Below, in pieces: positions 42,583 to 64,000 of a DNA stretch of 64,000 nucleotides (the first letter of the stretch is position 1; each line of letters starts with the position of its first letter). This stretch comes from an uncultured Methanosarcinaceae archaeon (GTDB taxonomy: Archaea; Halobacteriota; Methanosarcinia; Methanosarcinales; Methanosarcinaceae), in assembly GCA_963833425.1 (NCBI GenBank), contig CAWHXP010000006.1:96001-160000 (forward strand). The letters run 5' to 3'. The notes under the pieces are model-generated. The model did not search any database and was not told the origin of the DNA. It was given only the letters and a program-made list of their open reading frames with translations. A program made the position numbers and the translations under genes.

Positions 42583-42778
42583 AAAATTAGTGTATTGTTT
42601 ATAAATAATTTATATAAATGAATTCGTTGAAATAAGAATTATTTACAATATTCCATTTGCTATTGCTTTATAACCAGAAAAAAGATTCATATTGAATAAA
42701 CATGTAGATTTCCAAACATTTATATAATATAATTTCTAACACAATGTTTGATGACAGAATAATACTGGCATCTGATCA

Positions 42779-46275: not shown

Positions 46276-46644
46276 TTCCAATGAAAGATATATATGTAAT
46301 ATAAAGTTCATGATGAATGAAAATTCTATAACAGTTATGAATGTGCTCAACTCTTACAATCCCCATTTCCAGAAAGAATTTAATCACGTTGAAAAGATTA
46401 TAAACATCACTAGACCAAATAGGACTATCAAAATATTGTTAATAGTTCTAAGCTGATATTATTTCTCAACGTTTTTTGGATCTTTTTTGCTTTGACATTG
46501 GAGCAGATTTGGAACGAGGGCAGGAGTTGATGAACGAGTACTAATAAATGGCCCGAAAGCAGCTCCAGTGGGTTATGAATATTTAGTTGTAAGTCTATAT
46601 CTATTTAGTTATGATGATCAAAAAATAACGACAAGCTCAAGTGG

Positions 46645-47175
46645 TTACGAATTTTCACTGTCCATTGTTTGCTGGCCGGTTCCTACCTGATCTGCTTCAC
46701 GCTCACAAACATAAGCGCCACCATTTGTGTTCCCGTACCAGCGTTGACCTTCTCCAACCAGATTAAACTTAGTTAGAATTTCTTTTAGAATGTCATTATT
46801 ATCTGTCATGATTATCTCGACGTTCTGATTAAGATTCTCTGAAATAACATTCGTTTTTCTATATACCCGTCTTCCAAATTCGTCCGGAAACCTCTTTTCC
46901 AATATAAACATGCAAATCCTGCAATCTCCTGCATCTACTGCTTCTTTTATGCGTTCCAAAAGTGCTTTTGCGGCATTAGCGTTCCGCTTTTGGATAAATT
47001 TATAAAAATTAAAATATTTTTCAGAGTTCTCTGTCTTGCCCCTGTTCATATATTGATTGAATGTTTTATACGTTATTCCTGCAGCTTCGGAAGCAAAAGA
47101 ATAGGTGAGTCCCAAAGAGATATTTTCACCAATTCTCTGTTGTATTTCATCGGTTAGTTTACAAGGTCTTGCCAT
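46645..47175 (-). CDS. Terminase small subunit-like HTH protein
   Basis: MARPCKLT..I..GLTY..ASEAAGITYKTF..Y..RG, and ILEKRFPDEFGRR resemble phage TerS-like families; last ~30 aa look unrelated. Confidence 0.6.
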   Translation of the reverse strand: MARPCKLTDEIQQRIGENISLGLTYSFASEAAGITYKTFNQYMNRGKTENSEKYFNFYKFIQKRNANAAKALLERIKEAVDAGDCRICMFILEKRFPDEFGRRVYRKTNVISENLNQNVEIIMTDNNDILKEILTKFNLVGEGQRWYGNTNGGAYVCEREADQVGTGQQTMDSENS

Positions 47176-47542
47176 GGTCACACCGTTTTTTATTCAGTAT
47201 AATTAATATAAGTGGATCTTGTATTTAATATTTAGTTTAGTTCTGTTCGCGGTCGGGGTTTGTACATATCAAATCAGAGCCATTCTCCGGCGCTGTGAGC
47301 CTATTTTTTGAGTAGGGCAATTTTACTTTGAACTTAGGATAAAAGTCTCACCAGTTAGCTCAGAATAAGTCGTTTTCCGACCAAATCAAATCCCCATGAT
47401 TGAAATATCGTTGCACGGTAACTACCTTTAAGATATTTTTTCATAAAATTTTATTACTTTAAAATGATATATATATTAAGTATTGTTGATAGGAAAAACC
47501 TGATAAACCGTGACTATTGTAATATCAAGAGTAGGAGAAGAG

Positions 47543-47885
47543 CGATTGTGGGGAGATTTAAGGCACTTTCTTGATTGAGTTAAGTTATTCACTTCGGGTG
47601 AATTATACGTCTGTTGTAGGGGATGAGAGTAAGTCATCCATTCATTGTCTGATAAAGGTTTCTGTCTATCATAGTTCATGAAATCGGGACTACATAATTT
47701 AATACTAATTACTTTACGTTCGTATAATATATTCAGAAAAGTATATAATTAATTAAATTTAATTTTGTTTAATAAATTTCCCCGTATATCAAATGAATGC
47801 AAAATCTAGCTGTAGGCATCCCCTTCGTCTGCAGCTCATAAGATTACCCTTTTTACATCTAAAATCAGCTGGATCACCTAAGCTA
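47543..47885 (+). repeat. Repeat A copy 1 (TATA-hairpin-oligo(T) module)
   Basis: 27-mer CGATTGTGGGGAGATTTAAGGCACTTT identical to 54149-54175; homologous to 61640-61836. Confidence 0.8.
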
Positions 47886-48030
47886 ATAATATGAATTTGG
47901 ATTCCATAATCATGGAAAATTATACTAAAATATTAAATGAATAAGGGAGATTTTGATTTCCCCACAATTCTTTTAGAACAGGATCGATACAATTTATAAC
48001 AAATTATTTAACAATTCTTCAGTTAGATAT

Positions 48031-48438
48031 CTACAATTTATCTCCATGACCAATTTTTGAATCGGTCAGCAAAAACAAAGGTTTTACTTCTGTATTACCA
48101 TCCTTATCGGTTATAGTGCAACCCAATTCATGAATAACACCAAGTTGTTGATCAAACTCAGCTATTTGCTCTTGCATTGTTTTTTCGTGTGATGTGAAAT
48201 ATCTATGTTTACCTGTTTTGTCAAAAAATACCGGAGTACACAAAAAAGAATGTTTCTCGATTGATGGGTCACAATCTACAATAAGTGCACTTGCGACTTT
48301 CCAAAGCTGTATCGTACCTTCTTCCCATTTACACCGACGATCTTGGAGATAGTCTTCGTTTAATTTCGGCATCATTTGCAATGCAAATTCTGGACTAATT
48401 TCTTGTCTATAGTCGTCAATGAAACTCATTTTACTCAC
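48031..48438 (-). CDS. Hypothetical protein, mobile-element associated
   Basis: 135 aa, overlaps the upstream HTH gene, GGTGA RBS. Confidence 0.7.
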   Translation of the reverse strand: MSKMSFIDDYRQEISPEFALQMMPKLNEDYLQDRRCKWEEGTIQLWKVASALIVDCDPSIEKHSFLCTPVFFDKTGKHRYFTSHEKTMQEQIAEFDQQLGVIHELGCTITDKDGNTEVKPLFLLTDSKIGHGDKL

Positions 48439-48655
48439 CTTTCACTTTCTGCCAACCATAACCGTCGCCTTCAATTTCTATTTTATTTACTTTACCTTCA
48501 TTTACAAGCTTATAAAGCATGTTTTTAGCAGTAGACCTGCTACATCCTACTAGGCTCATAATAGTAGCAGTGGACCTGATTCTATCAATTGATAGAGCAT
48601 TCAGAAACATATCTTCTGTAAATTTCTGTTGAAATCTTGTTTTACCACCTTTCAT
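48431..48655 (-). CDS. Small winged-HTH DNA-binding protein
   Basis: STATIMSLVGCSRSTAKNMLYKLVNEGKV..GYGW. Confidence 0.75.
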   Translation of the reverse strand: MKGGKTRFQQKFTEDMFLNALSIDRIRSTATIMSLVGCSRSTAKNMLYKLVNEGKVNKIEIEGDGYGWQKVKGE

Positions 48656-48870
48656 ATTATTCGATCTACCGCCCGTTAATTTTCAAGAAACTACGCTACT
48701 ATATACGATTTATTAGTATTTATACTTTTATTATCACTTAGTAATGGTAATGGTTATTGATAACATTTTGATGCTTGGATAGCTGGTTATGTAGAAAATT
48801 TTGATGAAAGAAATTTGAACGAAGAAATTTTAAAAATAGAACAGACAAAAAATTGATATTCAGGCTAACT

Positions 48871-49173
48871 CTGTTCGTTATGTATATTTCATATTAGAAG
48901 CAAGCCTTCCGCTATTATATTCCCCAAAGTTCCCAATTATTCCCGTTATTTTCCCATTATATTCCCATTAAAAATAATATAAAAACAATAACAAGGGATT
49001 GGAAAATCATAAAATAAGGGGAATTATATTCCCAAAATAAAAAAATGATATAGGATTTCATAAAGCAATATCTGAAATATTAGAATGTCAAAAAATATAG
49101 TTTTTTATTTCTTTCTTGCATTTTCGGGCTTTTGGGAATAAAATGTCAACTGATTGCGTTTCAATGGGAAAAT
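48871..49173. repeat. Repeat B copy 1 (origin-like iteron module, right array truncated)
   Basis: Five TTCCC units at 48920-48966, central GGGAATTATATTCCC; homologous to copies 2 and 3. Confidence 0.85.
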
Positions 49174-49325
49174 GAACGTCTTTCGCGTATTGAAACGAAA
49201 TCTTACCGTGCTTTCGCTTGCTAGGATGAGAGCTTTAACGACGACAAAACCACAGTGACATACTTTGTCTGATAAAAATATATTTCTCCCCTGAGCATGA
49301 CTGCTCATTGGAAAAGTATACATGG

Positions 49326-51083
49326 TTATTCATACCGATGTGGTGGTAGCAGTAGCCAGGTAATTCGCCCCACTTCATGCTCATTGTAAAGTTGACGAAT
49401 GACAATCTTCTGTGGCGTTTGGTGCAACTCTGTCGGGATTTGTACAAGCATATGGCTTGCGGCCACAGTCCCGGCTGGCAATTCGATTCGGCCAAGATTA
49501 TGACTGCCTTGTGGATGCACCGGTATACGCAAGCGTTGTAGGTTCCCTGGATCCGTTTCCGTGTCCTGGTACTTCTCCATCCGCGAAGGAAGTGGTTCCA
49601 GCCCATTGCCAATCCAATGTGGAACTTGCAGGGCAAGATTGCTTTTCACGGGGAGTTCGGCGTGTGTTTCCAGGGTAAAGGTATGTGGTTGGTCCCAAGC
49701 TCCTGTGATGTGAAAGGGCAGAGGAGTGAAGTTGTTCCAGGGTGGCTTGGGTGAAGGGTGCAGACTCGGAAAGACAACATTGAAATTGCGCCACGTTATG
49801 TTATTGTTAGCATAAATATAGTCCACGAAGTCATTGAAGGTCGCAAAATTCGATGGATTGGGCGCTGGTGCATCGGCATTTCCTACCGTAGCGACGAAAC
49901 AATAGTGGCCTGCACCGGGAACTCGATCTGCCGGCCAGATAATACCGGGATCGGAAACTTCAACTACGCTTCCTGCCGGTACGTCCGGATAATATGCGGA
50001 GCCGATAAGGTTCCATAGGTTCGGAGTTACCAGCGTTGCTGGCGGCGACCAGTAGACCGTTGCAAAGACATTGGATGCATCCGATCCTCGGTTCCAGGCA
50101 CGCACATAAACGTAATTGGCCTGTCCTGTGACGACATTAGTGTCGCTCTCTGTATCGCTGTTGATTGATACTGAGGTTGAGAAGGTCGTCTGAGGATCAG
50201 AAACCGGATTGTTTTTTAGGATGATGTCTGGGCTATCAGATAGAGATCCAGTATGGGACGTACCATCATCGGCAAGGTTGTGGCGGGTAAAGAGAACCGG
50301 AACCTGCAGGGGCTTTGCGCCCAGCGGGAAGGGATCGTCGGTCGGTTCGGGAGACTGACCCAAACTGGTTGGCTGAGATGGCAGACTCGTGCCGGGTGGT
50401 ATGTAAGTTTCAATCAGCGTCGAAAAATTCGGCCATGGGTTTTGCACCCCAAGAATCTCGGCGGTTTCGGCGAGAGTGTTTTTCGTTGGGCCCCCAGCTC
50501 CGATGATGTCCGGCCAACGCAGTTTCACCTGATAGGCAAGGTAGTTCAAAAATAGTGATCCGCAACCTATAGAGACATAATCCTGATCGGTATGAAAGAC
50601 GTTGTCAACCCAGTTCGATCGTGCCGGGTTTTGCGATGTCGAAACACCATTGAGCCAAGAATCACCTGTGCAAAACAGCCAAGCTCGGTTGGGATAGAGA
50701 ATCTGGCCACAAACACGCGAGAGAGCTTCGCCATTGCTCCAAGAGGGAATCCAGCCTTTTGTCTGTTGATTCATAAAGATCTCGGCTTCTTCGGCGGCCA
50801 CCAACCCAGGCAACCCCAATGGCTCAGTGCTCAGATTGCAGTAGCAGTAAATATTATTCAAAAGGTCGTTGCTGGCTCCCCCATTACCTGGAACGAGTTG
50901 GATCTTGATCGGAAGTGACGATGGCATGATATTGCCGAACAGTTTGCTGAGTCGCGCAAGATCATACTCACAATAATCGAGTACGCCTTGTGCCAACGCA
51001 ACGCCGTCCGGTTGTCCACTACCGGTAAAAGAACTGTCATACAAAACAACGAAATTCTTGGTAGTTCCGTAATTTATCATCAT
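49326..51083 (-). CDS. 585-aa foreign-looking protein: degenerate zincin-like N-terminal domain plus beta-rich C-terminal domain
   Basis: Intact ORF, GGAG RBS, visibly GC-richer than the host; AEEAEIF..NGEALSR; SPDI, YVYVRAWNRG, GHYCFV, NNNITWRN. Confidence 0.75.
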   Translation of the reverse strand: MMINYGTTKNFVVLYDSSFTGSGQPDGVALAQGVLDYCEYDLARLSKLFGNIMPSSLPIKIQLVPGNGGASNDLLNNIYCYCNLSTEPLGLPGLVAAEEAEIFMNQQTKGWIPSWSNGEALSRVCGQILYPNRAWLFCTGDSWLNGVSTSQNPARSNWVDNVFHTDQDYVSIGCGSLFLNYLAYQVKLRWPDIIGAGGPTKNTLAETAEILGVQNPWPNFSTLIETYIPPGTSLPSQPTSLGQSPEPTDDPFPLGAKPLQVPVLFTRHNLADDGTSHTGSLSDSPDIILKNNPVSDPQTTFSTSVSINSDTESDTNVVTGQANYVYVRAWNRGSDASNVFATVYWSPPATLVTPNLWNLIGSAYYPDVPAGSVVEVSDPGIIWPADRVPGAGHYCFVATVGNADAPAPNPSNFATFNDFVDYIYANNNITWRNFNVVFPSLHPSPKPPWNNFTPLPFHITGAWDQPHTFTLETHAELPVKSNLALQVPHWIGNGLEPLPSRMEKYQDTETDPGNLQRLRIPVHPQGSHNLGRIELPAGTVAASHMLVQIPTELHQTPQKIVIRQLYNEHEVGRITWLLLPPHRYE

Positions 51084-51393
51084 GATTGACTCTCCTTGTA
51101 TCAGAAATTCCGTTACTAGATTGCTAACAGGCTCGATGTAAATCGCTACCGCAGCATTATTGAGTGGATGATTTCTGCTTAGGTGTGCTCAGCAATTATT
51201 TCAGAACACTATTGGATGTCCGTCGAAATACACAAAATTCACTGATTTGTGAAAAAAGTATAATTTTTAATCTATATAAATAGTAGTTCCGATTTTGCTG
51301 TATTTCCAAAGAACTGGTAGCCCACTTTCATAGAGTTTATATTATATTAATAAACTATAATTATATCTATGGAAAAAGGATCCAAAGCACCGT

Positions 51394-51600
51394 TTACTGA
51401 AGTTGCTTTCCAATTGCAGAAATTATCTTAATGCCACTACCATTTGCTGTTGCATACACTTCATTGGTTACATTACCGGAAAAGAATAGTACTGCCCGGA
51501 GTGACAGGGAAAAATCTTGTGTAGATAGATGTTGTTGTAACACTTTGACCTGGATTAAGACTAGTAATTTCGGGTATGGAGAGATTGAAGGCATTTTGCT
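51394..51600 (-). pseudogene. Fragment of a cell-surface Ig-like (DUF11-like) domain
   Basis: SLNPGQSVTTT..YT and GNVTNEVYATA in adjacent frames. Confidence 0.45.
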
Positions 51601-51710
51601 GAGTCTCATCGGGTATATTGAAGTCTAAAACGAACCGATCGAAAAGATTGAAGAATAATGGTAGCATTTTATTCAGAATTTTTTTTCTTATTATTAGATC
51701 AAAATAATGA

Positions 51711-52290
51711 ATTATAATTTTCAACCCATGAGCGTCTTTAATTTGAGATTTCACATAACAAAAATGGCATACTGCCAATCTAGTTTAAATAAGTTAAATC
51801 ACACTATAAATAGAAAAATGAGATATCTTAGGCTTTATGATTGTTCGTTTATGTCTATTTCTTATTGCAATTGTGTCTTCCGTTATTATATTCCCAATAG
51901 TTCCCAATTATTCCCGCTATTTTCCCATTATATTCCCATTAAAAATAATATAAAAACAATAACAAGGGGATTAAAATCATAAAAAAAAGGTGGATTATTT
52001 TCCCAAAATAAAAAAATGATATAGGATTTCATAAAGTAATATCCAAAATATTAGAATGTCAAAAAGTGTAATTTTCTATTTCTTTCTTGCATTTTGGGGG
52101 TTTTGGGAACAAAATGCCAACTGATTACGTTTTAATGGGAAAATAATGGGAATATTTTGGAAAAAAAGGGAAAATTGGGGAATAAAATAATCAGTTGCCG
52201 TTGTGCATAGATCAAGTATCCTTCAGGAAGATAAATTCCTTATCAAATAAGGACCATAAATTAAACTTTGATGTATCTATGCTGAACTTA
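51711..52290. repeat. Repeat B copy 2 plus 3' remnant of the Rep-like gene
   Basis: TTCCC x5 (51891-51937) and GGGAA-like x5 (52137-52182); minus strand 52212-52289 reads KFSIDTSKFNLWSLFDKEFIFLKDT*. Confidence 0.9.
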
Positions 52291-52904
52291 GTGGGATAAA
52301 TGGTTTAGACCGTATCTTTGGTAGATGATTTTGGTGACCGTGGTGAGTATGGCAGCTGTCGTGATAGATCCCATGACATAGACAATGGCGGATTATGTGG
52401 ATTTGTAGGTCGTATTGATTTATTTGATTGTCTTTCATTAATTATATACATTTTATTTCTATCATTAGATTTTATTCGGAATTATTTGGCATTTTTACTG
52501 ACTAAATCTAATTAATTTTGGGATTTACTTGGTAATTTATAGCCAAGCTTGGTAATTGTTTGATCTAAAATTGAAACACATTGATCTTTATGCTTTAAGT
52601 CAATCAGGCCAATTTTTAACAGAAGCGATAATCAAAGGACTTGGGTTAGTCCAGACTATGCAGGAAGCAACCAATAACAGTAATGAGAAATTATATCTAT
52701 TAGCGCTGCAAGAAGCCAGGATCAGAGAGCCGTAAGGCAAAGCAAAATCAAAGATAACGTATAAATGTCAAAGATAATGATGAACTCTAATAAGCGAGAA
52801 TAGATGCTGAGAACTCCAATCAAAGTACTTCACGGCCAGATGAGCATTAAGGATGAACACCTGCACACCAATGACGAGCAGGTAGAAAAGCTAAATGAGA
52901 ACAT

Positions 52905-53825
52905 TCAGTTATCTGTTTCGAAACTTATCATAATTACTGAAAATAATATCAAAATAGCACCAATAATTTGCCAAAATTTAAGTGATTCTTGTAGAACTAA
53001 AGCCCCCATTAATAAAACGCTAATTGGTTCGACCAGTAACAATATTCCAGCTTGTGATGCTTTTAATCGTTCTAATCCTTTATTAAGGAGGACATAAGGT
53101 AAAAATGTAGCAATAACACTTAAACCAACTAATAAAATCAATGCATTAGAAGGTAATGTAGTTCTAAAATTTATAATAAGTTTTTCACTTGTAATTAGTT
53201 TTATTATTAACCAACTGGGAAATAGCCACATCAATGCAGGAATAAATGACCAAAATGTTGTTGCTACAAAACTATATTCCTTTTTAACTCCTACATAACG
53301 ACCTGAAATTATATATGAAGCATAGAAAAAACCATTTAGAATTGCTAGAAAATAACCTATAAGTTGTTTATTTGCAACTGTATTGATCATCCATATTTGC
53401 AAAATCAATGCAACTCCAATAAGTGACAGAAAAGCTGACGTTAATCGTGTAAATGTGATTTTCTCATCTAAAATATATTTGCTCAATATTATTACAAAAA
53501 AAGGCTGGGTGTATGTCAAAAAGACTGCTTCACTTGCTAAAATTCCCAGTGATATTGAAGATAAATATGTCAAATGCGACATTGTTATAAAAAAACCAAA
53601 ACAAATAAAAGTAGAAACATCTGTTTTTTTTAACTTAATTAATTTATATCCATTAAATATCAATATTAAACATAATAATATTAGTATAGAAATGGCTAGC
53701 CTAAAAAAAACTTGTTGAAATGATGACACTTCAAATAGGCGCAAAAATACTGAGAATATTGGAATCGTCCCAAAAAGGAAACCACTCAACAAAATTTCTA
53801 TTCTGCTATTATTTTTAGAGTTCAT
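52905..53825 (-). CDS. EamA/DMT family transporter
   Basis: About ten TM segments, YTQPFFV..LDEKIT, LLVEPI..VLQESL; very AT-rich. Confidence 0.9.
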   Translation of the reverse strand: MNSKNNSRIEILLSGFLFGTIPIFSVFLRLFEVSSFQQVFFRLAISILILLCLILIFNGYKLIKLKKTDVSTFICFGFFITMSHLTYLSSISLGILASEAVFLTYTQPFFVIILSKYILDEKITFTRLTSAFLSLIGVALILQIWMINTVANKQLIGYFLAILNGFFYASYIISGRYVGVKKEYSFVATTFWSFIPALMWLFPSWLIIKLITSEKLIINFRTTLPSNALILLVGLSVIATFLPYVLLNKGLERLKASQAGILLLVEPISVLLMGALVLQESLKFWQIIGAILILFSVIMISFETDN

Positions 53826-54148
53826 TTAATCTTCCAAATATTATTATAATATTTGTTTAAATTATTACTTACAAGATTTATTAATTCTACTAGATGTGGG
53901 ATTTAGATCCTATTTGAAAAATCATAATAATTAATCAGTCTTGTTTGTCTACACAAAGTTGCAGGAATCTCTGACCAACTAAGCAAATAGGCTGCCGAAC
54001 AAGTCGATGGTTACCTATGCTACCGTTCGGTAATGAATATTTAAAAGAAACGAGAATCAAATTAGAGTATGAATTTCAAGAGCTAATTTGAGATCATATG
54101 CTTAAATACATACTTAAATAAAAGTAATATTATAAAATGTATGAAGAT

Positions 54149-54495
54149 CGATTGTGGGGAGATTTAAGGCACTTTTTCGAGTGAGCTAGGGCATTAACTT
54201 AAAATTAATTATTAGCATGTTGTAGGGCCTGAGATTAATTTATTTATTGAATAGTATTAAACAGCTACCTTATGTTGTAATTGCGAGATATGGAACATGT
54301 AATTTAAATTACTAATTAGTTTAAGGTTCACTATTTAGAGTATGTGGAAAAAATATATAATAAATTAAATTTAGTCCTAATTCAAAGGTCTACCCTCCCT
54401 TCAACCAATCCTTCTATGGACTGCAGGCACTGATTTACTTGCAGTTCATAAAGATCAACTTTTTAAATATTCCTGATCAGGATAAATCCTTAAAG
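54149..54495 (+). repeat. Repeat A copy 2
   Basis: Shared 27-mer, AAAAATATATAA, hairpin 54420-54445, T5 at 54460. Confidence 0.8.
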
Positions 54496-54549
54496 TCCGT
54501 ATAAATCTGTTTCTGCTTATTTTTGTAGTATTAATGTTGGAGATATAGT

Positions 54550-54740
54550 AGGAACCTACAGCGTCTCATTATTGAAGTGTAGAACCCTGTAAAAGCTATC
54601 AGGGAAACAACCAATTTTCAGGGAGACGTTTTCACAAAACCTGTTGCTAAAGCAATGATTGCAATCACTCCAAACGCAGTTCGAAAAAGGAGAGCAAAGC
54701 CACCTACATTTTCTTCCAGAAACAATATTTTGAGATCCGT
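54550..54740 (-). pseudogene. DUF2892/YgaP-like small membrane protein pseudogene
   Basis: (ACG)DLKILFLEENVGGFALLFR..SP*KLVVSL..MRRC; probable start mutation and an internal stop. Confidence 0.6.
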
Positions 54741-54931
54741 CGGATAAACCCCCTTATAATTCGTCCTATTCATATATTATATATCACTTATACAGTGTCT
54801 ATAATGTATAGTGTTATTCTGTTTTGATATGTTCCTGCTCTGTTTGTATTAGGTCTATCAAGAAGAAATGATTATAGGGTTACTTAGGGCATTTTCTAGA
54901 GATTTTCTTTCGATAGTTGCATATATTTTGT

Positions 54932-55993
54932 TCATGAACCGATGTTTTTGGCCTCTTTAAGGTTTTTTTCCTTCAAAGCTTGCTTTATTGGAGGGGTAAT
55001 AAGGGGCTTTTCTTTGATCAATCCATCGGGTTTGTAGTAGAGTATCATCAGCATTATCATTCCAAACAATATATATTCAAGCCAGGTGGCTTCGAAAGGT
55101 AGCTGGAGTATGCTCCTGATCTCAAATTTATATACAGTTAGGGAGACCTTTGTGAGAACAAAAAAGAGTACTCCCAGTGCTACACCCTTATTATTTCCCC
55201 TGCCTCCTAAAAGAACCATGAGGAATGGAAAAAATGTCCATTCAACCCTGGAGAAAGTGGAAGCTATAACATTCATGCTGTAAAAGGAATACAGTGCTCC
55301 AGCTAGTGCTGCTATGCTCGAACCCAGAGCTGCAGTCTTCATTCTGAGAACAAGAATATCCTTGCCAAAAGCCCGAACGACGTCTTCGTTTTCCCTCATT
55401 GCCTTCAAAAGCCTGCCGTAGGGTGAGGTGAGAATTTTGTCTACAAAAAGATAAACTATTAGCGCTGTACCAAAGATCAGAAGTGTAACATAAATGATCC
55501 GCCACTCTCCTGGTATCCATGCTAATACATTAGGAACGCTTACACCATAATAGCCCCCTATTATGGAGGTATCGTAATTTGAGACTTGATATAGAACCTC
55601 ACTCATTGCAAGTAGAGCAATTGAAAGGTACTCATTTTTTAGTTTTGCGCTAGGAAGGATGAAAAGAATACCCGCCATAGCGCCTATAAAAGCAGCTAAC
55701 AGAAGAGAGAGTACAAGAATGCACATTCCCAAAAGCGGATTGTGGGAAATCATCGTATTCATGGTGCTCTTAACAATTCCGCTTGCTTCTACAATTTCTC
55801 CATCTAAGCCCAAAAGGAGCATGAGAACATGATTCATAACATACCCAACAGTTATGGCTCCGATAAGAACAGCCATAGCTCTACCAAAATTGGGAATGCC
55901 AGCGTAACCATACTCAACATTCAGGCTGAGTGCAACTATGAGGTATATGGAGAACCATAGTACTATATCTAAGAAGAAGTATGCCATCTCCAC
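54932..55993 (-). CDS. Branched-chain amino acid ABC permease (LivM-like)
   Basis: LNVEYGYAGIPNFG, SPYGRLLKAMRENE, LGGRGN. Confidence 0.92.
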   Translation of the reverse strand: MEMAYFFLDIVLWFSIYLIVALSLNVEYGYAGIPNFGRAMAVLIGAITVGYVMNHVLMLLLGLDGEIVEASGIVKSTMNTMISHNPLLGMCILVLSLLLAAFIGAMAGILFILPSAKLKNEYLSIALLAMSEVLYQVSNYDTSIIGGYYGVSVPNVLAWIPGEWRIIYVTLLIFGTALIVYLFVDKILTSPYGRLLKAMRENEDVVRAFGKDILVLRMKTAALGSSIAALAGALYSFYSMNVIASTFSRVEWTFFPFLMVLLGGRGNNKGVALGVLFFVLTKVSLTVYKFEIRSILQLPFEATWLEYILFGMIMLMILYYKPDGLIKEKPLITPPIKQALKEKNLKEAKNIGS

Positions 55994-56892
55994 TTTTTAT
56001 TCCTCCATATACTCAGCCCTGCAATTCCCATGGGAGCGATTATTAAAGTTATCACGAGCATAATAAGGGAAACCACTTTGCTATATACCAGAATACCAGA
56101 TCCTAAAAAAGTTGATAGATAAAAAGTTACAAGCGATTCCGACATTCCTATAATATACCCTCCAGCCAAGGCACCGTAGATGCTACTCAAACCGCCCACG
56201 ACGCTTGCCGCAAAAATGGAGACTATTATTATTGTTCCAGTTAAAGGTTCTATCTCTTGACGGAAAGGCAACATGCTCCCCGCAACGGCGGCTAAGGAGC
56301 CGGAGAGGAACCAGGAAAACAGGCGGGTATGCTCTACATTCACCCCCATTATTTCAGCCAGAGTTGGATTTTCCATAGAAGCCCGCAAAGCTATGCCGAA
56401 TTTCGTTCTGTAAAGGAGCAAAAACAAGGCTAGAAGTAGCAATAAAATTATAAAACTTGAAATAACAAGTACTGCTTCTATACCAAAGAGTTTGAAATCG
56501 ATGGGCGTGAAAATGAACTTTGTCGTTGCCATTCGAGTGATGCTACCCAATGTTTCAGAGTATGCACCAAGTATGCCGATAAATATTATATCTACAGCCA
56601 GGGTGGCAATCATAAGCATGACCACTGTCGCCTCTTTTTTTATCATTGGTTTGATAATCAGTACGTAGATCCCCACTCCAATCACACCTCCGAAAATGAA
56701 GGAGAGGGGGAGGGAGTAATAAGGATGCACCCCTAATATACGCCACAAAGTCAAGGAGAGATATGAACCGAATACGGCCATACTTCCTTGTGCAAAATTG
56801 GGTATGCCTGTGGTGATATAAGTGATCGTTAAACCTATGCTCAAAAGAACTAGAAGGTTTGAGTAAACAACTGCTCCTTCTAAAACGGCCAT
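55969..56892 (-). CDS. Branched-chain amino acid ABC permease (LivH-like)
   Basis: IGLT..NFAQG, RTKFGIALRA..N..LA..GVN, VGGLSSIYGA. Confidence 0.92.
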   Translation of the reverse strand: MAVLEGAVVYSNLLVLLSIGLTITYITTGIPNFAQGSMAVFGSYLSLTLWRILGVHPYYSLPLSFIFGGVIGVGIYVLIIKPMIKKEATVVMLMIATLAVDIIFIGILGAYSETLGSITRMATTKFIFTPIDFKLFGIEAVLVISSFIILLLLLALFLLLYRTKFGIALRASMENPTLAEIMGVNVEHTRLFSWFLSGSLAAVAGSMLPFRQEIEPLTGTIIIVSIFAASVVGGLSSIYGALAGGYIIGMSESLVTFYLSTFLGSGILVYSKVVSLIMLVITLIIAPMGIAGLSIWRNKKWRWHTSS

Positions 56893-57284
56893 GTTATCCC
56901 CCACACATTAAAGTATATAAAATTGTCTTATGGTTTAGAAAATAAATATTTACACTTCAATAATTTTTTCGTTTATAGTAAATTCACAAATTAATTCATT
57001 TATATTCGATTAAGACATAAAATACTAAAAAATGTTATTTTTATGCTAAGTATATCTACCATTCAAGTTAAAAAATAACCACACTTGGTATTCAAAGTTG
57101 TGCATAAAATTCATTAACCTATGACAAATGCAAATCGATTACACATTTGAGCAACATATCTGGCATATAACTTGATTTATAACGTGAAAATATTTTTTTG
57201 TGCTTACCATGAAGATGAAAAAATTTAGTTATGGGACTATAGATAAGAAGAGCTAAAGTATAAAAAAGTGAGGATGTATAGAAT

Positions 57285-58553
57285 ATGAGAGGATGGTTTA
57301 AGTTTGCTGCAGCGGTGATAGCTACTGTACTCATCGCTGGTTGTGTGCAGCCGGGAGAAAAAGCTCCTACGAAAGCTGAGGTCGAGGTTCCACTTGGTGT
57401 ACTTATGGATCTTTCTGGACCGCTGACCACACATGGTGAGGACATTAAAAACACGGTTACAATTGCCGCTGAAGATATAAATAAAAAATTTGAAAAGGAT
57501 GGAAAACCGTATAGGGTCAAGCTCTATGTTGAGGATACAAAGGCTGATCCAAAAATAGCCCTGGATAAGATCATGGCGTTGCATACACAGGGCGTGAAGC
57601 TTATCGTTGGACCACAGAGCAGTGGGGAAGTAAAGAATATTATCGGATATGTCGGATCGAACAAGATAATTGTAGCTTCTCCCTCCTCAACTGCAGAAAC
57701 GAAGTATCTAGGTGTGACAGCGCCAGATGAGAAGAAGTATGTTTTCAGGTTCGTACCTACAGACTCTTTTCAGACTAAAGCTATAGCAAAGCTTGCTCAT
57801 GAACTGGGTGTTAAGGCGGTAGTTATAACTTACATTAGCAACGCCTGGGGCAAAGGTCTGGAGGAATTCGGTAAGGAGGAATTTCAAAAGCAAGGAATCG
57901 AAGTAAAGAACTCAGTAGGATATCCCGACCCTACACCTGCGGACTTCACACCATACATAGCCACGATTGAAGGAAATGTAAATGATCTAATGAAAAACTA
58001 CACCAAAGATCAGATTGCAGTTGTGGCTTTCAGCTACGAAGAAATTGCTACTATGCTTGCGCAGACGCAAGATAACTCAGTGCTGCTAAACGTCAAGTGG
58101 ATAGGGTGCGATGGAATAACGAAAAGTAGCAAGATTGTAGCTGATGTTCCTGGGAAAGCGAACAAGATTAAACTTTACAGCACAGTCTCGGAAACAAGGG
58201 GTACAAAAGAATTCGATGATCTGAACAGTACTTACCATCAGCGTATTGGCAGCTCGCCCATGAGCTACGGTTTGAATGCTTATGATGCAACATGGATACT
58301 GGCTCTATCCTTTGCGCAGGTATACGACAAACAGGGTAAGTATAATGATGATGCTATAGCAGAGGCTGTGCCGAAGGTGACGGGTGAATATAGTGCGGGC
58401 AAGTATGGCATATATCCTGTGAGTGGCGCGATAAAATTAAATGAATATAAAGATAGGATTGGCTTGGAGTATAAAATCTATGCCGTCTCTAATGGAAGCT
58501 GGAACGAACGTGGAGCATGGAAGTTTGCTACGAATGAAATAAAGTGGAGTTGA
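57285..58553 (+). CDS. Branched-chain amino acid ABC substrate-binding lipoprotein (LivK-like)
   Basis: Lipobox IAGC, DLSGPL, EDTKADP, SPSSTA, YVFRFVPTD, AYDA. Confidence 0.92.
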   Translation: MRGWFKFAAAVIATVLIAGCVQPGEKAPTKAEVEVPLGVLMDLSGPLTTHGEDIKNTVTIAAEDINKKFEKDGKPYRVKLYVEDTKADPKIALDKIMALHTQGVKLIVGPQSSGEVKNIIGYVGSNKIIVASPSSTAETKYLGVTAPDEKKYVFRFVPTDSFQTKAIAKLAHELGVKAVVITYISNAWGKGLEEFGKEEFQKQGIEVKNSVGYPDPTPADFTPYIATIEGNVNDLMKNYTKDQIAVVAFSYEEIATMLAQTQDNSVLLNVKWIGCDGITKSSKIVADVPGKANKIKLYSTVSETRGTKEFDDLNSTYHQRIGSSPMSYGLNAYDATWILALSFAQVYDKQGKYNDDAIAEAVPKVTGEYSAGKYGIYPVSGAIKLNEYKDRIGLEYKIYAVSNGSWNERGAWKFATNEIKWS

Positions 58554-58577
58554 TGGAAGCTGGAACGAACATGCAGT

Positions 58578-59351
58578 ATGGAAACGCACCAAGGACTAAA
58601 TAAAGTCGAATTAACAACTCAAAAACTCACAAAACGCTTCGGCGAACTTCAAGCTCTCGATGGGGTGAGTATAGAGATTAAAAATTGCATAACGTTAATA
58701 ATCGGGCCTAACGGAGGCGGAAAGACCACACTTATAAACACGGTTACTGGTTTCCTCAGTGCGGATGAAGGTGAAGTTTTTTTCAGGAAGAGGGAGATAA
58801 CAGATCTTTCTCCTCACAAAATTTTTAAACGTGGCATAGTAAGAACCTTCCAGACCCCCAAACCACTTCTAAAACTTACAGTTATTGAGAATCTGCTTAT
58901 AGCGGAAGCAAATTATGGGGAAAGCATAATTCAGAGCTTAGGTAAAAGCTGGCTTGCGAAAGAAGAGATGCTTGTAAAAAAAGCTTTTTCAGTTCTGGAT
59001 TTCTTAGGTTTAGAGCACATGTGGAATGAGTTTGCAATGAACCTGAGTGGAGGGCAGCTAAGGCTTCTTGAGATAGGCAGAGCGCTCATGTGTCAGACGA
59101 AGCTTATTATTATGGATGAGCCTATTGCAGGCATAGCCCCTGATTTGTCCCATGTTATCCTTAAGAAGCTCAGAAAACTTTCAGAGATGGGGATTTCTTT
59201 TCTCATAGTGGAGCATCGGTTAGATATAGTTCTTGAATACGTTGACCATATTTACGTCATGGCAGGAGGAAGAATTATTGCTGAGGGTAGAAGTAAGGAT
59301 ATATTAGAACATCCGGAGGTTATAGAGGTGTATTTGGGTGCTCAGAGTTGA
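58578..59351 (+). CDS. ABC ATPase (LivG-like)
   Basis: [30 protein letters not shown]. Confidence 0.93.
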
Positions 59352-60042
59352 GAACTTTTTTGCAGGTTATAAGGAACTGCGCATCCTATTTGATATAAAT
59401 GCCTTAGTGGAGAAAGGAAAGATTACTACAATTGCAGGACCGAATGGCAGTGGAAAAAGTACGTTTTTAAAGTCTGTTTTTGGCCTTGTTACCATCCAGT
59501 CGGGCAGAGTTCTTTATAAAAGCGAGGACATAACCCTAATTCCACCCCACAAAAAGACCAAGATAGGTATAGCTTACCTCCCACAGGTAGAGAACATTTT
59601 TACTAATCTAACAGTTGAAGAAAACCTCAGAATTGCTGGCTATACTCTTAAAAATGAGGAATACAAGGAGCGGCTGAATTTAGTAAAAGAGATATTTCCT
59701 GAGCTAAAAATGAGGTTAAAACAAAATGGAGGGTCATTAAGTGGTGGCGAGAGACAATTTCTTGCAATAGCCTCAGCTCTTATAAAAAAGGCAGAGCTTC
59801 TCATGCTTGATGAACCCACAGCCATGCTTTCGCCGAGACTTGCAAGTGATACATTCAAAAAAATTTTGGAAATAAAAGAAATGTTTGGACTTACAGTACT
59901 TATAGTGGAGCAAAACGTCAAAAAGGCCCTGGAAATAAGCGATAATGCATACATGCTGATGAATGGAAGGATCGTTTTTGAAGGCAAATCAGAAGAACTA
60001 CTCAATCATGAAAAATTCGAAAGATTTTGCATAGGAATTTAA
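59338..60042 (+). CDS. ABC ATPase (LivF-like)
   Basis: [24 protein letters not shown]. Confidence 0.93.
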
Positions 60043-60971
60043 CCTAATGGCTATCGGCCGGTTTCAACTCGATAATAACTGTAATTAAGATAGTGATTTT
60101 TCCATCATGGAATGAAGACGGTAATTGCGGCAATTGTGGAGCTTGCGGTGCTTACGACCCAAGCGACAAAAAGAAGTTGCGAAAAGAAAGATGAAATAAG
60201 CTGGCTGGTAATTTTTGCACTGGCTTCATTTGCCTCTTTTTCGTTGGAGAACGGTTTCTTCGGTGGGTATGCCCTCCAGTTTTTTGTCCTTCTATAGTAC
60301 TTTCTGCTTTCCGTATAGAAAGAGCGTAGGGAAGTCCCAACGCAACATTGTCACCGATTTGGTGTGTTATTTCTGGAGTTAATTTTGTAGGTCTGCCATA
60401 AATTCAACGTTTTTTACTCTTTATAATAACTGTCAATGAATGTCGTACTTTATACTTACTTAGTTCTCTTAGACACAACGGCGGGTTTATATATGTCAAA
60501 TCGTAACAAAGAACAATTCTCAGCCTTTTTAAGACGTTTTTTTAACTATTATAATGGTATACCGCTGAGAAGGTTGGGCAAAGTCAGAGCTTGAAGCTGT
60601 ATTATTTACTTTATTATATGCTTCTACTCCATAGATAATATAAATCGCTGCCGCTTTACTATGTATCAATGATAGCAGATATTCATCTTTTGCACCTTGC
60701 AAATCAGGCGATACATTGTGCAAATCACTATCATCTATAGCTGCCTGATTATCTGTAGACAAGATACCTCCATACGTAGAAAGTGACGTGAGATCATGGT
60801 TTTTGCTGTGGTAACCATATAGTCATTCTCATTAGCCACTGCGGTGTGTCAGCCACACCTACTGCCTTCCATTTATTGTAAGTTTGATAGGTTACACCAA
60901 CATTTTCGGCAGCAAGAGAATATGAAAGTTCTAAAGCAATATTGTAACCTATTCGTTAGTGTGCGTTTTCA

Positions 60972-61550
60972 TCATTTTGGATTGATTTTCAGAGCAATTT
61001 TATACTGTTCTTCAGCTTCTTCCAAACGCTTCGTTTCTGTTAGTAAATTTCCGTAACTACGATGTATATCTGCATCACTTGGGTCGAGATCCAGAGCAAG
61101 CTTATACTGTTCTTCAGCTTCTTCCCATCTCTCCATTTCTGTTAGTGAATCTCCGTAACTACAATGTATATCTGCATCATTTGAGTCGAGATCCAGAGCA
61201 AGCTTATACTGTTCTTCAGCTTCTTCGCATCGCTCCATTTCTGCTAGTAAATCTCCGTAACTACAATGTATTTCTGCATCATTTGGATTGATTTTCAGAG
61301 CAAGTTTAAACTGTTCTTCAGCTTCTTCCCATCGCTCCACTTCTACTAGTAAATCTCCATAACTACAATGTATATCTGCATCATTTGGATCGATGTCCAG
61401 AGCAAGTTTAAACTGTTCTTCAGCTTCTTCCCATCGCTCCACTTCTACTAGTAAATCTCCATAACTACAATGTATATCTGCATCATTTGGATTGATTTTC
61501 AGAGCAAGTTTAAACTGTTCTTCAGCTTCTTTTGCATTCTTTTCTTCCAT
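60972..61550 (-). CDS. TPR protein, five near-identical 34-aa (102-bp) repeats, probably truncated
   Basis: Unit NDADIHCSYGDLL.E.ERWEEAEEQ.KLAL; ends at an apparent frameshift (AAT CCA AAA TGA). Confidence 0.85.
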   Translation of the reverse strand: MEEKNAKEAEEQFKLALKINPNDADIHCSYGDLLVEVERWEEAEEQFKLALDIDPNDADIHCSYGDLLVEVERWEEAEEQFKLALKINPNDAEIHCSYGDLLAEMERCEEAEEQYKLALDLDSNDADIHCSYGDSLTEMERWEEAEEQYKLALDLDPSDADIHRSYGNLLTETKRLEEAEEQYKIALKINPK

Positions 61551-61639
61551 AACAAAATCCTCAGTTTAATTAAATCACTTAATTGATTATTAAGTATCAT
61601 TTAGAGTAATACAGTGTAATTAAAGTAAGACAGTAAAGA

Positions 61640-61836
61640 CTACGTAATTCTAATACTAATTAGTTTTGGTCAGTACAATTTAGAATTTATACAAAAAATA
61701 TATAACTGATTAAATGTTCTATAATTTAACGGTTTACCAGTATTTTCAAGCAAACCTACCATCTAACTGCAGGCACTACTCACATGCAGTCACAAATCAA
61801 CTTTTTGGTATCTAAGATCAGCCGGGTCATTTAAAT
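61640..61836 (+). repeat. Repeat A copy 3 (partial)
   Basis: TAATACTAATTAG, AAAAATATATAA, hairpin 61766-61790, T5 at 61802. Confidence 0.7.
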
Positions 61837-62150
61837 TAACAAAAACTAAGTTATTGATGGCTTTCGACGATGTATTGGTTGTTATTTACATGCTCGATGA
61901 CAAAATTACGATGAAGCAAGCAGTATATTTTATAGTTAAAATCAGTATTGGCTGTGCATTTTTGGGTATCTTGATAGGAATATTTACTTTGTTTTTCTTA
62001 GTGAAACAGAATTAAAATAAGCACCAGAGAGATTAAACAAGTTCAAAGCACTGATAAAATAAAAATCAGCCCACCGAAATTTGTTCAATTAGTCGCATGA
62101 AGGCGACTATTGGGAATGTTTTTCGCGAGCGGAATAATTGGCTCTTCTAA

Positions 62151-62654
62151 AATATGATTTTCAACCAACTAGAGTCTTCAAATTTGAGATTTCACAGAAC
62201 CAAAACGGCGTACTGCCAATCTACTTAATTAAGTTAGATCACAATCATAAAAAGAAAAATGTGATATTCAGACTTTATGATTGTTCGTTCATACTCATTA
62301 TTTATTACAAGTATGTCTTCTGTTATTTATATTCCCATTAGGTCCAAATTATTCCCACTATTTTCCCATTATATTCCCATTAAAAATAATATAAAAACAA
62401 TAACTAGGGAATTAAAATCATACAAAAAAGGGAATTATATTCCCAAAATAAAAAAAATGATATACGATTTTTTTAAAGTAATATCCGAAATATTAGAATG
62501 TCAAAAAGTGTAATTTTTTATTTCTTTCTTGCATTTTCGGAGTTTTGGGAACAAAATGTCAAATGATTGCGTTTCAATGGGAAAATAATGGGAATATTTT
62601 GGGATAAATGGGAATATTTGGGGAATAAAAGAATCATTTGCCTTTGTACCCTAA
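62151..62654. repeat. Repeat B copy 3 (complete origin-like module)
   Basis: Left TTCCC array 62332-62378, central GGGAATTATATTCCC, right GGGAA array 62579-62625. Confidence 0.9.
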
Positions 62655-63030
62655 TCAGGCGTCGTTCAGGAAGATAAATTCCTTATCAAAGAGTGACCAG
62701 TAATCAAACTTTGATTTATCTATGCTGAACTTAAAAGCCCTATTTCCACTACTGCTTTTTAGCGTTTCTCCATTTCTCTCATATTTTGTATCTGTTTCTT
62801 CTTCCATTTTTAACCCCTTAATCTTGTCAAGGAGTCCACCGGCTTCTCTGTCTTTCCTACCAACTAAGGCTCTTTTCACGCTTTGATAGTTAATGCCTGT
62901 GTGACTTGATATATCATTAATTGTGCATTTCGCTTTACTCGCTATATATTGGATTATCTGCCTTTCGTTTTCGTTCATTTTTGTTACAGTGTTCTCTGAT
63001 AGGACTAGGCTATAGACAGGCTCAATGTAA
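62655..63030 (-). pseudogene. C-terminal winged-helix remnant of a putative Rep/primase-helicase protein
   Basis: Frame stays open upstream of the listed Met (IEPVYSLVLSENTVTKMNENERQII); HTH TINDISSHTGINYQSVKRAL; stop abuts the iteron module. Confidence 0.55.
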
Positions 63031-63399
63031 GGTTTTCATTCGTTGGTAATGATTTTTGTATAATAGTCGCCACAAAATCACTCTTAAAGTCTCTAAAGTA
63101 GTTTCCGTGGGCTTTGCAGACAACTGTTTTTGGTGACCGTTGTGGCTATGTTAGAGATCGTAATAGAGATCATCATATATAGACAATGAAGGTTTATCTG
63201 GATTTGTTGGCCATAGCGAATTATTTGATGATTACTGCCCTAAAGTTGTAGATTTAATTTATTATATAGTTTTTCCATATACTCTAACTATTATATTAAA
63301 AACTATTTGGTATTTTAAAATCACGAAGCTCAAATATGTTAATTTAATATAGGGAAGCTTTTCATGCTAGTCAATAAATGACTATATCTCAGCCTTACA

Positions 63400-64000
63400 G
63401 CATGCTTATAATGCATTCAATAGGAGAACTTTAACCAACTCCTGAAAATGCCTTGAATCGCCACACAATCAACCTTCTTTTCTTTATTTAATTGGTTTAG
63501 GTGGCCCAGGCGCTGATCCAAAATATCGAGGAATTTCAAGCACTATGAATTCATGACTTTATTTCCGATCTCTTCTGCTACCTCTCTTTCAGCTACAGGT
63601 ACTGTGACCATAATTTTTCTAGTTGCCCTATTTTTGCAGAGTTCAATGGCTGCTCTCATGGTAGAATCCATTGCAATACCATCATCTACAAGTATCACGG
63701 TTCTTCCTTTCATATTGCAGGGAATTTCCTCCTCTGAAAGCTTTTATGTGTCTATCGATCTCTGCAATCTGCTGCTGTTTGATTTTCTCAATATTTTCCT
63801 CTGAGAACCAGTAATAAACATTTTCAAAGATGAAAGTGCTTCCATTCTCGACTATTGCCCCAAACCCGGCTTCAGAGTTATCCGGAAAAGACAGTTTCTT
63901 TGTAATGATGAGGGAAAAATATACTTTAAGTTCCTTGCAATCTGCAATCCTACTTCCACTCCCCCACGCGGGATAGCAAGAATGAGAGGGTTTTCTGCCT
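63400..64000 (-). pseudogene. Phosphoribosyltransferase, frameshifted, begins beyond the window
   Basis: LAIPRGGV, KKLSFP.NSEAGFGA, RTVILVDDGIA in different frames. Left boundary approximate. Confidence 0.8.

Follow-up and report, generated by a model that had tools for sequence, protein, structure and literature searches.

A putative relic island of integrative, satellite-like elements in the chromosome of a Methanosarcinaceae archaeon

In bacteria, satellites of tailed viruses are well documented and have been studied in detail. Phage-inducible chromosomal islands and Staphylococcus aureus pathogenicity islands (PICIs/SaPIs) carry an integrase at one end, a primase/helicase-type Rep, an iteron origin around an AT-rich core, small helix-turn-helix (HTH) genes, cargo and an orphan terS, the gene for the terminase small subunit (TerS). 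P4 has no terS; it uses cos sites and remodels capsids through Sid/Psu. Here we analysed a 64-kb stretch of the genome of an uncultured Methanosarcinaceae archaeon (the window), in which the region at 46.4-63.5 kb is best explained as a relic island of integrative, satellite-like elements, a reading to which we assign a probability of about 0.5. According to bioRxiv 10.1101/2025.02.15.638363, the only archaeal satellites described are pSSVx and pSSVi, plus the new SRCE elements of haloarchaeal spindle viruses. 'Dark matter in archaeal genomes' (PMC4158269) describes small integrated archaeal elements with an integrase and a prim-pol, one of them proposed as a possible satellite, and the Rep proteins of pRN1 (ORF904) and pSSVx, which combine a prim-pol, a helicase-type NTPase and a winged HTH (wHTH). 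Our literature searches turned up no PICI-like element of archaeal tailed viruses.

The elements behind the island resemble PICIs/SaPIs in the integrase at one end, a Rep followed by an iteron origin, small HTH genes, cargo and an orphan terS, in having no gene for the terminase large subunit (terL, TerL), capsid or tail, in size (6.5-13 kb for whole elements) and in the occurrence of several relics at one site. The likeness would be one of way of working and not of descent; the host here is an archaeon, and no sequence relationship to PICI proteins was seen. They differ in that no Stl-like master repressor, helper induction or small-capsid gene was identified and no att site was found. The Prim-Pol, P-loop and wHTH parts of their Rep resemble the layout of pRN1-type ORF904 and of pSSVx. 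Like the elements here, pSSVx and pSSVi join a plasmid-like replicon to a borrowed virion-related gene, but they exploit spindle-shaped fuselloviruses and have no TerS, whereas the gene borrowed here would be that of a head-tailed virus. The cryptic elements of PMC4158269 are likewise small and integrated, with an integrase and a prim-pol Rep and without capsid genes; they were reported with no terminase gene, and the word 'terminase' occurs 0 times in that paper, whereas in the present elements a cassette of a non-coding unit (module A) and terS is the shared, defining module.

The window comprises positions 96001-160000 of contig C6 (window positions 1-64000) in a 4.07-Mb assembly (G000; GCA_963833425.1) of 21 contigs with a GC content of 36% and mcrA present. 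The assembly is 80% complete by marker genes, which limits the genome-wide statements of absence made below for helper virus, TerL and capsid. 'Methanosarcina' is used for the host as a working assignment, made from mcrA and from the answers of the control genome Methanosarcina acetivorans to the same searches. The comparison sample comprised 151 genomes of the order and 31 genomes of the genus, and its closest relative to the host is G164 (CbiE 88% identical). An earlier note, made from the letters of the window, had described two families of non-coding modules (A and B) in three copies each, a third short homology in two, a Rep-like wHTH C-terminus and a TerS-like gene, and had proposed that satellites or integrative elements inserted here repeatedly, delivered cargo and decayed. 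All of these features lie where that note placed them, and the repeats are far above chance.

The same genome carries fuller copies of the element, about 10-13 kb long, on contigs C5, C9, C10 and C20. Together with the metagenome loci L171 and L189 described below, they are the relatives that the earlier note had predicted, with an integrase, a primase/helicase Rep, an origin module and terS and with neither capsid nor tail genes. Homology among the four copies extends from -6.8 kb to +3.3 kb around the wHTH. On one strand they carry, in this order, a tyrosine integrase (403-405 aa, with a zinc ribbon; PF00589, E 1e-20), small unmatched open reading frames (ORFs), Rep, module B, the small HTH gene hth74, ORF135, a cargo slot, module A and terS (PHROG 4102, E 5e-22). 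In C20 and C9 the cargo slot between ORF135 and terS holds 4-5 kb of unrelated genes, including those for an MgtE-like protein, a CAAX protease and a Cu/Zn superoxide dismutase. The copies are mosaic: C9 and C20 are 100% identical in Rep and 81% in the integrase, and between C5 and C10 identity drops from 97% in the integrase to 70-76% in the middle. HTH74 and ORF135 are each present in 5-6 genome copies; HTH74 is 90-95% identical in the other elements, and ORF135 had no match in Pfam, PHROG or NCBIfam. Searches of C5, C10, L171, L189 and a related element in genome G136 returned no capsid, tail, lysis or terL match in Pfam or PHROG, and many of their small ORFs had no match of any kind, so that novel structural genes may be among them.

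Compared with this gene order, the window at 46.4-63.5 kb contains one 3' half of an element (half of module B, HTH74, ORF135, module A, terS and a tail module), in which all ORFs are open. Further relics comprise two stubs of the Rep C-terminus with module B, three partial units of module A and terS debris, with cargo between them. The succession of small HTH gene, hypothetical gene, module A and TerS-like gene after the first copy of B, as read in the earlier note, was recovered as HTH74, ORF135, A and the PHROG 4102 match. The integrase-to-Rep half of the C5 element had no match in the window, where neither an integrase nor a capsid gene was found, again in agreement with that note; the only integrase match on C6 lies outside the window.

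Module B has the features of a replication origin. Its three direct copies (48878-49173, 51849-52144 and 62291-62586; ungapped identity 100/87/62%) were extended by BLASTN to 48848-49173, 51701-52290 and 62150-62733 at 84-88% identity, and the whole genome holds 9 full-length places. TTCCC iterons with an 11-nt period are present in every copy, with Tandem Repeats Finder (TRF) arrays at 48930-48970, 51885-51941 and 62327-62382. The pattern TTCCC-N5-7-TTCCC-N5-7-TTCCC occurred 7 times in the window, always within the three B copies, against an expectation of 0.01, and 0 of 100 shuffles reached 7. On the minus strand, copy 3 starts directly after the stop codon of a 107-aa wHTH ORF and continues with five TTCCC-type iterons 11 nt apart, an AT-rich stretch of ~190 nt with additional isolated GGGAA/TTCCC boxes, and the iterons again in inverted orientation. 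Copies 2 and 3 both have this second, inverted array, ~186-200 nt from the first, and copy 1 ends at 49173, exactly where the second array would begin.

The pairing of a Rep-like C-terminus with copies 2 and 3 of module B on the minus strand was also borne out: the 107-aa ORF is the C-terminus of a Rep of ~748 aa, of which a stub of 25 residues is left at copy 2. Rep is a single gene of ~748 codons with a Prim-Pol part (PF09250, E 1e-14), a P-loop part and a wHTH part that matches HTH_24; its middle shows a Walker A-like GSGKS motif and matched no helicase family. The wHTH ORF is present genome-wide in 7 full copies and one stub. In all four fuller copies the Rep frame is interrupted by 1-nt indels or stops, the longest open piece being that of C10 (595 aa). 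Sequencing error was considered as the cause of the frameshifts and rejected: of the indels, a single one falls in an A6 tract and the rest in tracts of 2-3, and C5 has in-frame stops. Because the indels fall mostly outside long homopolymers and C5 has these stops, the decay of Rep appears to be mostly real. With the 595-aa query, Rep matches were found in 33 of the 151 genomes of the order, this genome included, and no relative was found among solved structures (PDB sequences). The related element of G136 lies on an 11.7-kb contig and encodes an intact Rep of 732 aa (59% identical), an integrase and a DNA methyltransferase. Behind this Rep come T-rich CCC repeats, then AT-rich DNA and then the repeats in inverted form, so the layout of the origin has been kept while its sequence diverged. 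An initiator of their own and origin features (Rep, and inverted 11-nt iteron arrays ~190 nt apart) are thus present at the level of sequence, and the window very probably holds the relics of a family of integrative, self-replicating elements.

The PHROG 4102 match of the window TerS spans residues 3-131 on profile positions 9-142 of 166, and the protein had no Pfam or NCBIfam match. Genome-wide, tblastn with TerS gave 37 high-scoring segment pairs (HSPs); among the 151 genomes of the order, 12 had terS matches, with 23 in this genome and 1-3 in each of the others. In IMG/VR, a query built from the alignment of six element copies yielded 96 confirmed relatives at 26-40% identity, of which 80 loci were kept and 30 inspected. 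An ORF of at least 250 aa starting within 1.5 kb downstream of TerS was present in 27 of these 30, and in 22 of the 27 it belonged to a TerL family (Terminase_6N/6C, Terminase_3 or TerL_nuclease); the remaining five comprised three ORFs unmatched at E 1e-5, one RNase_T exonuclease and one AIPR protein. In tailed viruses the family thus stands at the terS position and, judged from sequence, it is a genuine TerS family.

In the elements, by contrast with the viruses, terS is an orphan. We compared the best 79 of 259 metagenome relatives (53-77% identical), and the locus counts out of 79 refer to these. Where at least 2 kb beyond terS was available, a same-strand ORF of at least 300 aa starting within 600 nt was found in 1 of 46 loci, and this one encodes a PAS/GAF sensor, compared with a large ORF in 53 of 69 viral loci. 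A quick maximum-likelihood tree separated 65 element or genome TerS rows from 68 viral rows with a support of 93.8, and element TerS proteins share 53-100% identity within their clade versus 26-40% with viral TerS. Among 63 intact element terS genes the median pairwise dN/dS was 0.18 (1686 usable of 1953 pairs), and the window terS gave 0.25-0.37 against its nearest relatives. By these comparisons the element copies of terS form a clade of their own that is under purifying selection.

The cassette of module A and terS is shared by otherwise unrelated replicons. Module A was present in 68 of the 79 metagenome loci, HTH74 in 12, an integrase in 10, ORF135 in 9, a PrimPol-type Rep in 9, module B in 7, a TerL-like stretch in 2 (in neither downstream of terS) and a DUF927 protein in 1. 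Three replicon types carried the cassette, all with integrases: those with the PrimPol Rep (9/79 loci), those with DUF927 (1/79 loci, in addition to C7, G120 and G140) and those with a DnaG-Toprim primase-helicase (L171 and L189). In G120 and G140, terS belongs to small integrated elements of another kind, which encode a DUF927 helicase and an integrase, carry defence or other cargo and lack TerL. In G120, a related species, the terS-bearing DUF927 element (L031, G120:C9, 9763-19889) is followed by defence cargo, namely BREX (BrxB), an Eco57I-type methylase and a GmrSD nuclease.

L171 and L189 are compact, apparently intact elements. L171 is an insert of 7.1 kb between an EPSP synthase gene and a PAS histidine kinase gene. 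It has a tyrosine integrase (PF00589) at its end and also contains a DnaG-type primase split over three ORFs, an ORF of 531 aa, module A and terS, with the host gene beginning 250 nt after terS. The 531-aa ORF matched no family, and tblastn aligns Rep queries to it. L189 encodes a 1094-aa zinc-ribbon/Toprim primase-helicase, TerS and a 378-aa ORF with a weak tblastn alignment (29%) to integrase queries and no Pfam match. The zinc-ribbon/DnaG-N/Toprim primase of these two loci, fused or adjacent to a helicase, is in our view reminiscent of the P4 alpha protein. The primase-helicase and the integrase are what these elements have in common with P4-like satellites; P4 cos sites and Sid/Psu remodelling were not seen in them.

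Module A may hold promoters or a packaging recognition site. Its conservation is ~70-77% across the 68 loci, with invariant blocks such as ATCATGGGGA and GACTTTTAT. A structured RNA was considered and has been rejected for now: RNAalifold on 50 sequences predicted 0 pairs. A helix scan found only AT-rich runs and no convincing compensatory changes, and Rfam had no match at 45-64 kb of the window. A weakly conserved ORF, orf67, lies at 47476-47679 inside copy 1. The tail module, immediately beyond terS, is probably the distal end of the element. The coordinates of all features are listed in Table 1.

Table 1. Positions of element-derived and cargo features in the window
Feature	Position	Strand	Details
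Tail module, directly downstream of terS	46413..46654	-	79-83% identical at 5 other genome places; after terS in 4/79 metagenome loci
terS, intact, 178-aa orphan terminase small subunit homologue	46645..47181	-	PHROG 4102, E 1.7e-20
Module A copy 1, full 590-nt non-coding unit directly upstream of terS; two TATA-like boxes	47182..47770	-	With terS in 68/79 metagenome loci
ORF135	48031..48438	-	82-87% identical in C5, C10 and C20 elements; next to hth74 and terS in 9 metagenome loci
HTH74, small HTH protein, first gene after origin module	48431..48655	-	PF22168, E 2.4e-5, under curated cut-off; PHROG transcriptional regulator, E 0.0017
Module B copy 1, truncated origin module, HTH74-proximal array only (48917-48973)	48840..49173	-	Repeat comparison, TRF, BLASTN
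585-aa cargo gene	49326..51083	-	GC 0.45-0.51 vs ~0.32 around; single copy in genome
Module B copy 2, both inverted iteron arrays (51888-51944, 52130-52175)	51701..52155	-	Repeat comparison, TRF, BLASTN
Rep C-terminus stub, last 25 codons	52155..52290	-	81% identical to 62598-62733; tblastn residues 83-107 at 80% (52215-52289)
Third homology copy 1, repeat-family module	52295..52565		Matches C2:21959-22206 and C5:796-1032; also in liv-operon contig of G164
Module A copy 2, distal part only, no terS behind	54143..54464	-	70% to 47537-47761; 82-83% to C5, C8 and C10 copies
Liv-type ABC transporter operon: two permeases, binding protein, two ATPases	54861..60042		Pfam
terS remnants of relic 3	60317..60957	-	tblastn residues 16-54 at 60839-60955; BLASTN 60317-60556 and 60868-60957 vs C20 terS region
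Module A copy 3, short distal unit, about 170-200 nt	61634..61847	-	Repeat comparison, BLASTN; unit matches many genome places
Module B copy 3, complete origin module; arrays 62327-62385 and 62572-62630, 186 nt apart	62150..62650	-	Repeat comparison
Rep C-terminal wHTH, 107-aa ORF	62655..62978	-	PF13412; residues 489-595 of C10 595-aa open Rep frame; other copies 79-86% identical
Third homology copy 2	63015..63233		Repeat comparison, BLASTN
Module A distal unit, inverted	63249..63478	+	Arms 54303-54373 and 63249-63319, 80% complementary

The case for satellites rests on an orphan, selected and clade-specific TerS, on its fixed terminal position behind a 590-nt unit, on the three replicon types that carry this cassette and on the lack of any structural gene. 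By analogy with PICIs/SaPIs, the integrase would insert and excise the element, the wHTH of Rep would bind the iterons, and the PrimPol-helicase would start replication. TerS would then mark the element DNA, perhaps via module A, and pass it to a tailed helper virus, whose TerL motor and capsids would take it up. Packaging by a helper is inferred from gene content, and we put the chance of such a satellite function slightly below even.

We searched the genome for traces of a helper. The HK97 capsid family and four TerL-domain Pfam families had no match in the 4.07-Mb assembly, while control genomes did match. A tblastn search with 31 viral TerL and portal-position proteins revealed one broken TerL piece (C2:103838-104423), which is 26-40% identical to the TerL of viral contigs with a related TerS, including L051 and L054. 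This relic was considered as a helper trace and rejected; it has no viral neighbours, and ordinary host genes surround it. On one metagenome contig (L167), an intact TerL of the same kind as the relic lies 2.3 kb from an element terS; this TerL is encoded on the opposite strand, and a DUF5681 gene of its own occupies the terS position. A candidate helper lineage is that of the viruses with a Terminase_6N-type TerL, since their TerS proteins count among the closest relatives on the viral side.

Several results weigh against a satellite nature. No intact helper virus was found in this genome, and none of the 80 IMG/VR loci pairs terS with the element integrase or Rep, save for one weak Rep match; of 19 candidate stretches for Rep relatives in IMG/VR, 0 were confirmed. 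Of A, B, Rep and TerS, which the earlier note had expected to co-occur in other genomes, Rep and terS lie together in metagenome contigs, but among the 151 genomes of the order their matches never stood at one locus outside this one. The G136 element carries no terS beside its intact Rep, and terS is therefore dispensable for the replicon. A protein database search returned 255 TerS homologues from public metagenomes at E ≤0.001, of which the named ones are mostly 'hypothetical protein' or 'transposase' and never terminase. One TerS homologue matches HTH_Tnp_1. The predicted TerS model (an HTH and a long helix at residues 54-84) reached a mean pLDDT of only 60. A Foldseek search of this weak model against the PDB gave nothing at E ≤0.001, Sf6 TerS ranking 29th, and a TerS profile search against PDB sequences gave spurious matches only.

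The ends of the elements add to these points. No att site or flanking direct repeat was found by left-junction alignment, by comparison of the left junction with right-side repeats in the four fuller copies, by a genome motif scan or by a search for repeats at L171 and L189; the longest exact repeat was 10-11 nt, which is not above chance. The earlier note had likewise seen no att site, and none was found in the window-family copies either. Empty sites were sought in G164, G063 and G140 with the flanks of the C10 and C5 copies, but these flanks are themselves accessory or repeated and no usable match was obtained. At the integrase-side end of C5 (L010 3011-3037), C9, C10 and C20 we observed an imperfect palindrome, GGTCTATA-N11-TATAGTCC, ~50 nt before the integrase start codon; a genome scan for this motif, with 2 mismatches allowed, returned the four element ends and about nine other places. 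Two KaiC-domain gene fragments and a KaiB gene adjoin the integrase end of C5 (L010 2041-2955), and peat metagenome contigs follow this left flank up to L010 position 3008 and then diverge. Contigs from peat and permafrost gave hundreds of short matches of 85-99% identity along the C5 element, with 30/30 depth bins covered in 2 of 4 runs. The peat, permafrost and sediment runs are total metagenomes and share ≤0.10 of sampled words with the genome, so these contigs represent related variants from other strains. The contig joints at the C5 element are short-sided or come from single contigs and allow no inference on excision.

Many of these results would also fit integrative plasmids that are not satellites, in which the TerS-like protein serves as a DNA-binding regulator, as an excision or recombination directionality factor, or as a decoy that blocks packaging in defence, and which spread by vesicles, cell fusion or vertical descent. 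Such plasmids would account for the plain HTH at the TerS N-terminus, the HTH_Tnp_1 match and the transposase or hypothetical annotations of relatives, for a G136 relative that works without terS, for the BREX and GmrSD defence cargo next to terS in G120, and for the lack of an element-like contig or Rep relative in IMG/VR and of a significant fold match for the TerS model. However, the likeness to viral TerS spans the full length of the protein, beyond the HTH, and in viruses the family stands directly before TerL. In addition, terS is always last, behind the 590-nt unit, on three unrelated replicons, which is the layout of a packaging module, and it is under strong purifying selection. We regard this explanation as less likely than that of integrative, satellite-like elements.

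The claim of the earlier note that module A occurs three times in the same orientation held for the three sites; however, the copies are unequal, with one full copy, and a fourth, inverted piece is present. Between sites, 47537-47642 and 54143-54248 are 76% identical, and 54330-54370 and 61675-61715 are 78% identical. The two copies of the third homology are 73% identical over 52326-52380 and 63125-63179, and 74% over 52326-52428 and 63125-63229 (BLASTN). Copies 2 and 3 of module B share the junction between the Rep C-terminus and the third homology and differ by one ~430 bp deletion, a further point against the proposed reading. They therefore look like a duplicated, already truncated fragment and not like two integrations. 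Around the 585-aa gene, copies 1 and 2 have an overlap of 300 nt with 88.5% identity, which points to recombination between two elements and not to simple insertion. Repeated insertion, cargo delivery and decay as proposed in the earlier note are supported by an array in one orientation inside an island missing in the closest relative, with the reservation that the second and third B copies appear duplicated.

The cargo is of diverse origin. The 585-aa gene, which sits between the two overlapping half-copies of the origin module, has 423 homologues with up to 73% identity, the named ones being from bacterial metagenome-assembled genomes (Candidatus Angelobacter, Binataceae), and no match in Pfam, PHROG or NCBIfam; it looks like a bacterial gene acquired by the archaeon. 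The Liv operon (54861-59880) shares 96% DNA identity with contig C115 (14 kb) of G164, compared with 86.5% for the neighbouring cbiDE, and its binding protein is present in 4 of the 31 genomes of the genus. These values suggest that the operon was recently transferred between lineages. An EamA gene (Pfam) is also among the cargo. Between module A copy 3 and the terS remnants, a TPR gene (60972-61550, minus strand) contains a 102-nt tandem repeat in 5.5 copies with 90% matches, and metagenome locus L150 likewise has a TPR protein, of 585 aa, close to terS. A search of the genome for CRISPR arrays by a crude scan of k-mer spacing gave three tandem repeats, of which the one inspected was a 90-nt coding repeat. 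The 64-kb window contains no tRNA. Insertion sequence (IS) elements of the IS5 and IS6/IS240 families, both massively expanded, stand in the window at 45375-46275 and 41727-42588. An IS6 element directly follows terS at the same place in the C5 and C10 elements.

We also compared the synteny beyond cbiE, as the earlier note had advised, with G164, which has no island there. In G164, cbiD-cbiE lies ~1 kb from the counterpart of C20:40697-46489, the flank at the integrase end of the C20 element. One region of C8 contains, side by side and with order and orientation unchanged, counterparts of the end of C6 and of the start of C20, and the two contigs are presumably adjacent; this join is indirect, which also speaks against the reading of the island given here. 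Were the two contigs adjacent, cbiE and the C20 flank would be separated by ~77 kb of DNA, element-derived and cargo, with an integrase-bearing element at one end and the A-terS-tail of the window at the other. All 14 module matches on the C6 and C20 stretches are in one orientation, the outcome expected of tandem integration beside a resident element. A same-orientation island of ~77 kb thus appears to stand beside cbiE, without a counterpart in the closest relative. The array would have grown as elements integrated next to a resident one, and would then have been reshaped by recombination, duplication, IS insertion and decay.

Alternatively, the array could be the product of local segmental duplication and IS-driven rearrangement of one old insertion, or of mis-assembly. 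The shared junction of B copies 2 and 3, the ~40 IS5 and ~70 IS6 copies (HSPs) in the genome and the mosaic structure of the elements agree with duplication and rearrangement. Against this, the divergence of 12-16% among the B copies of the window equals that of copies on other contigs, so that any duplication must be old unless the copies derive from different elements; moreover, the cargo differs from copy to copy, and the repeats are too divergent for collapse or expansion by the assembler. We consider this explanation improbable, and duplication bears on the origin of the array only and not on the nature of the elements. Remnants of full tailed proviruses, with the structural genes deleted and the integrase-to-terS half left, would explain a gene order (integrase, replication genes, terS) that is the left half of many temperate tailed viruses, the broken TerL on C2 and the TerL near the element terS on L167, but are very improbable, as the ends of such deletions should vary and yet 1 of 46 loci has a large ORF after terS (not TerL) and several share a short tail, host genes begin 250 nt after terS in L171, element TerS proteins group in a clade of their own, and the L167 TerL stands on the other strand with a terS-position gene of its own.

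Taken together, the integrative, satellite-like elements of the relic island are the strongest candidates to date for parasites that exploit archaeal tailed viruses. We tentatively propose that they may represent the first satellites of head-tailed archaeal viruses, in which an A-terS packaging-hijack cassette has been swapped among at least three unrelated integrative replicons. Such elements would be common and diverse in Methanosarcina of peat and permafrost, and would ferry bacterial genes and transporters into methanogen chromosomes, giving rise to accretion islands such as that at cbiE. They offer a concrete, testable candidate, with a defined gene set, a defined origin and a terS clade apart from viral terS. 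If the elements are not mobilised, a selected orphan TerS on integrative plasmids needs another explanation, for example a defence by interference with packaging. If they are mobilised, they would constitute a route of gene flow into methanogens that is relevant to methane emission from peat.

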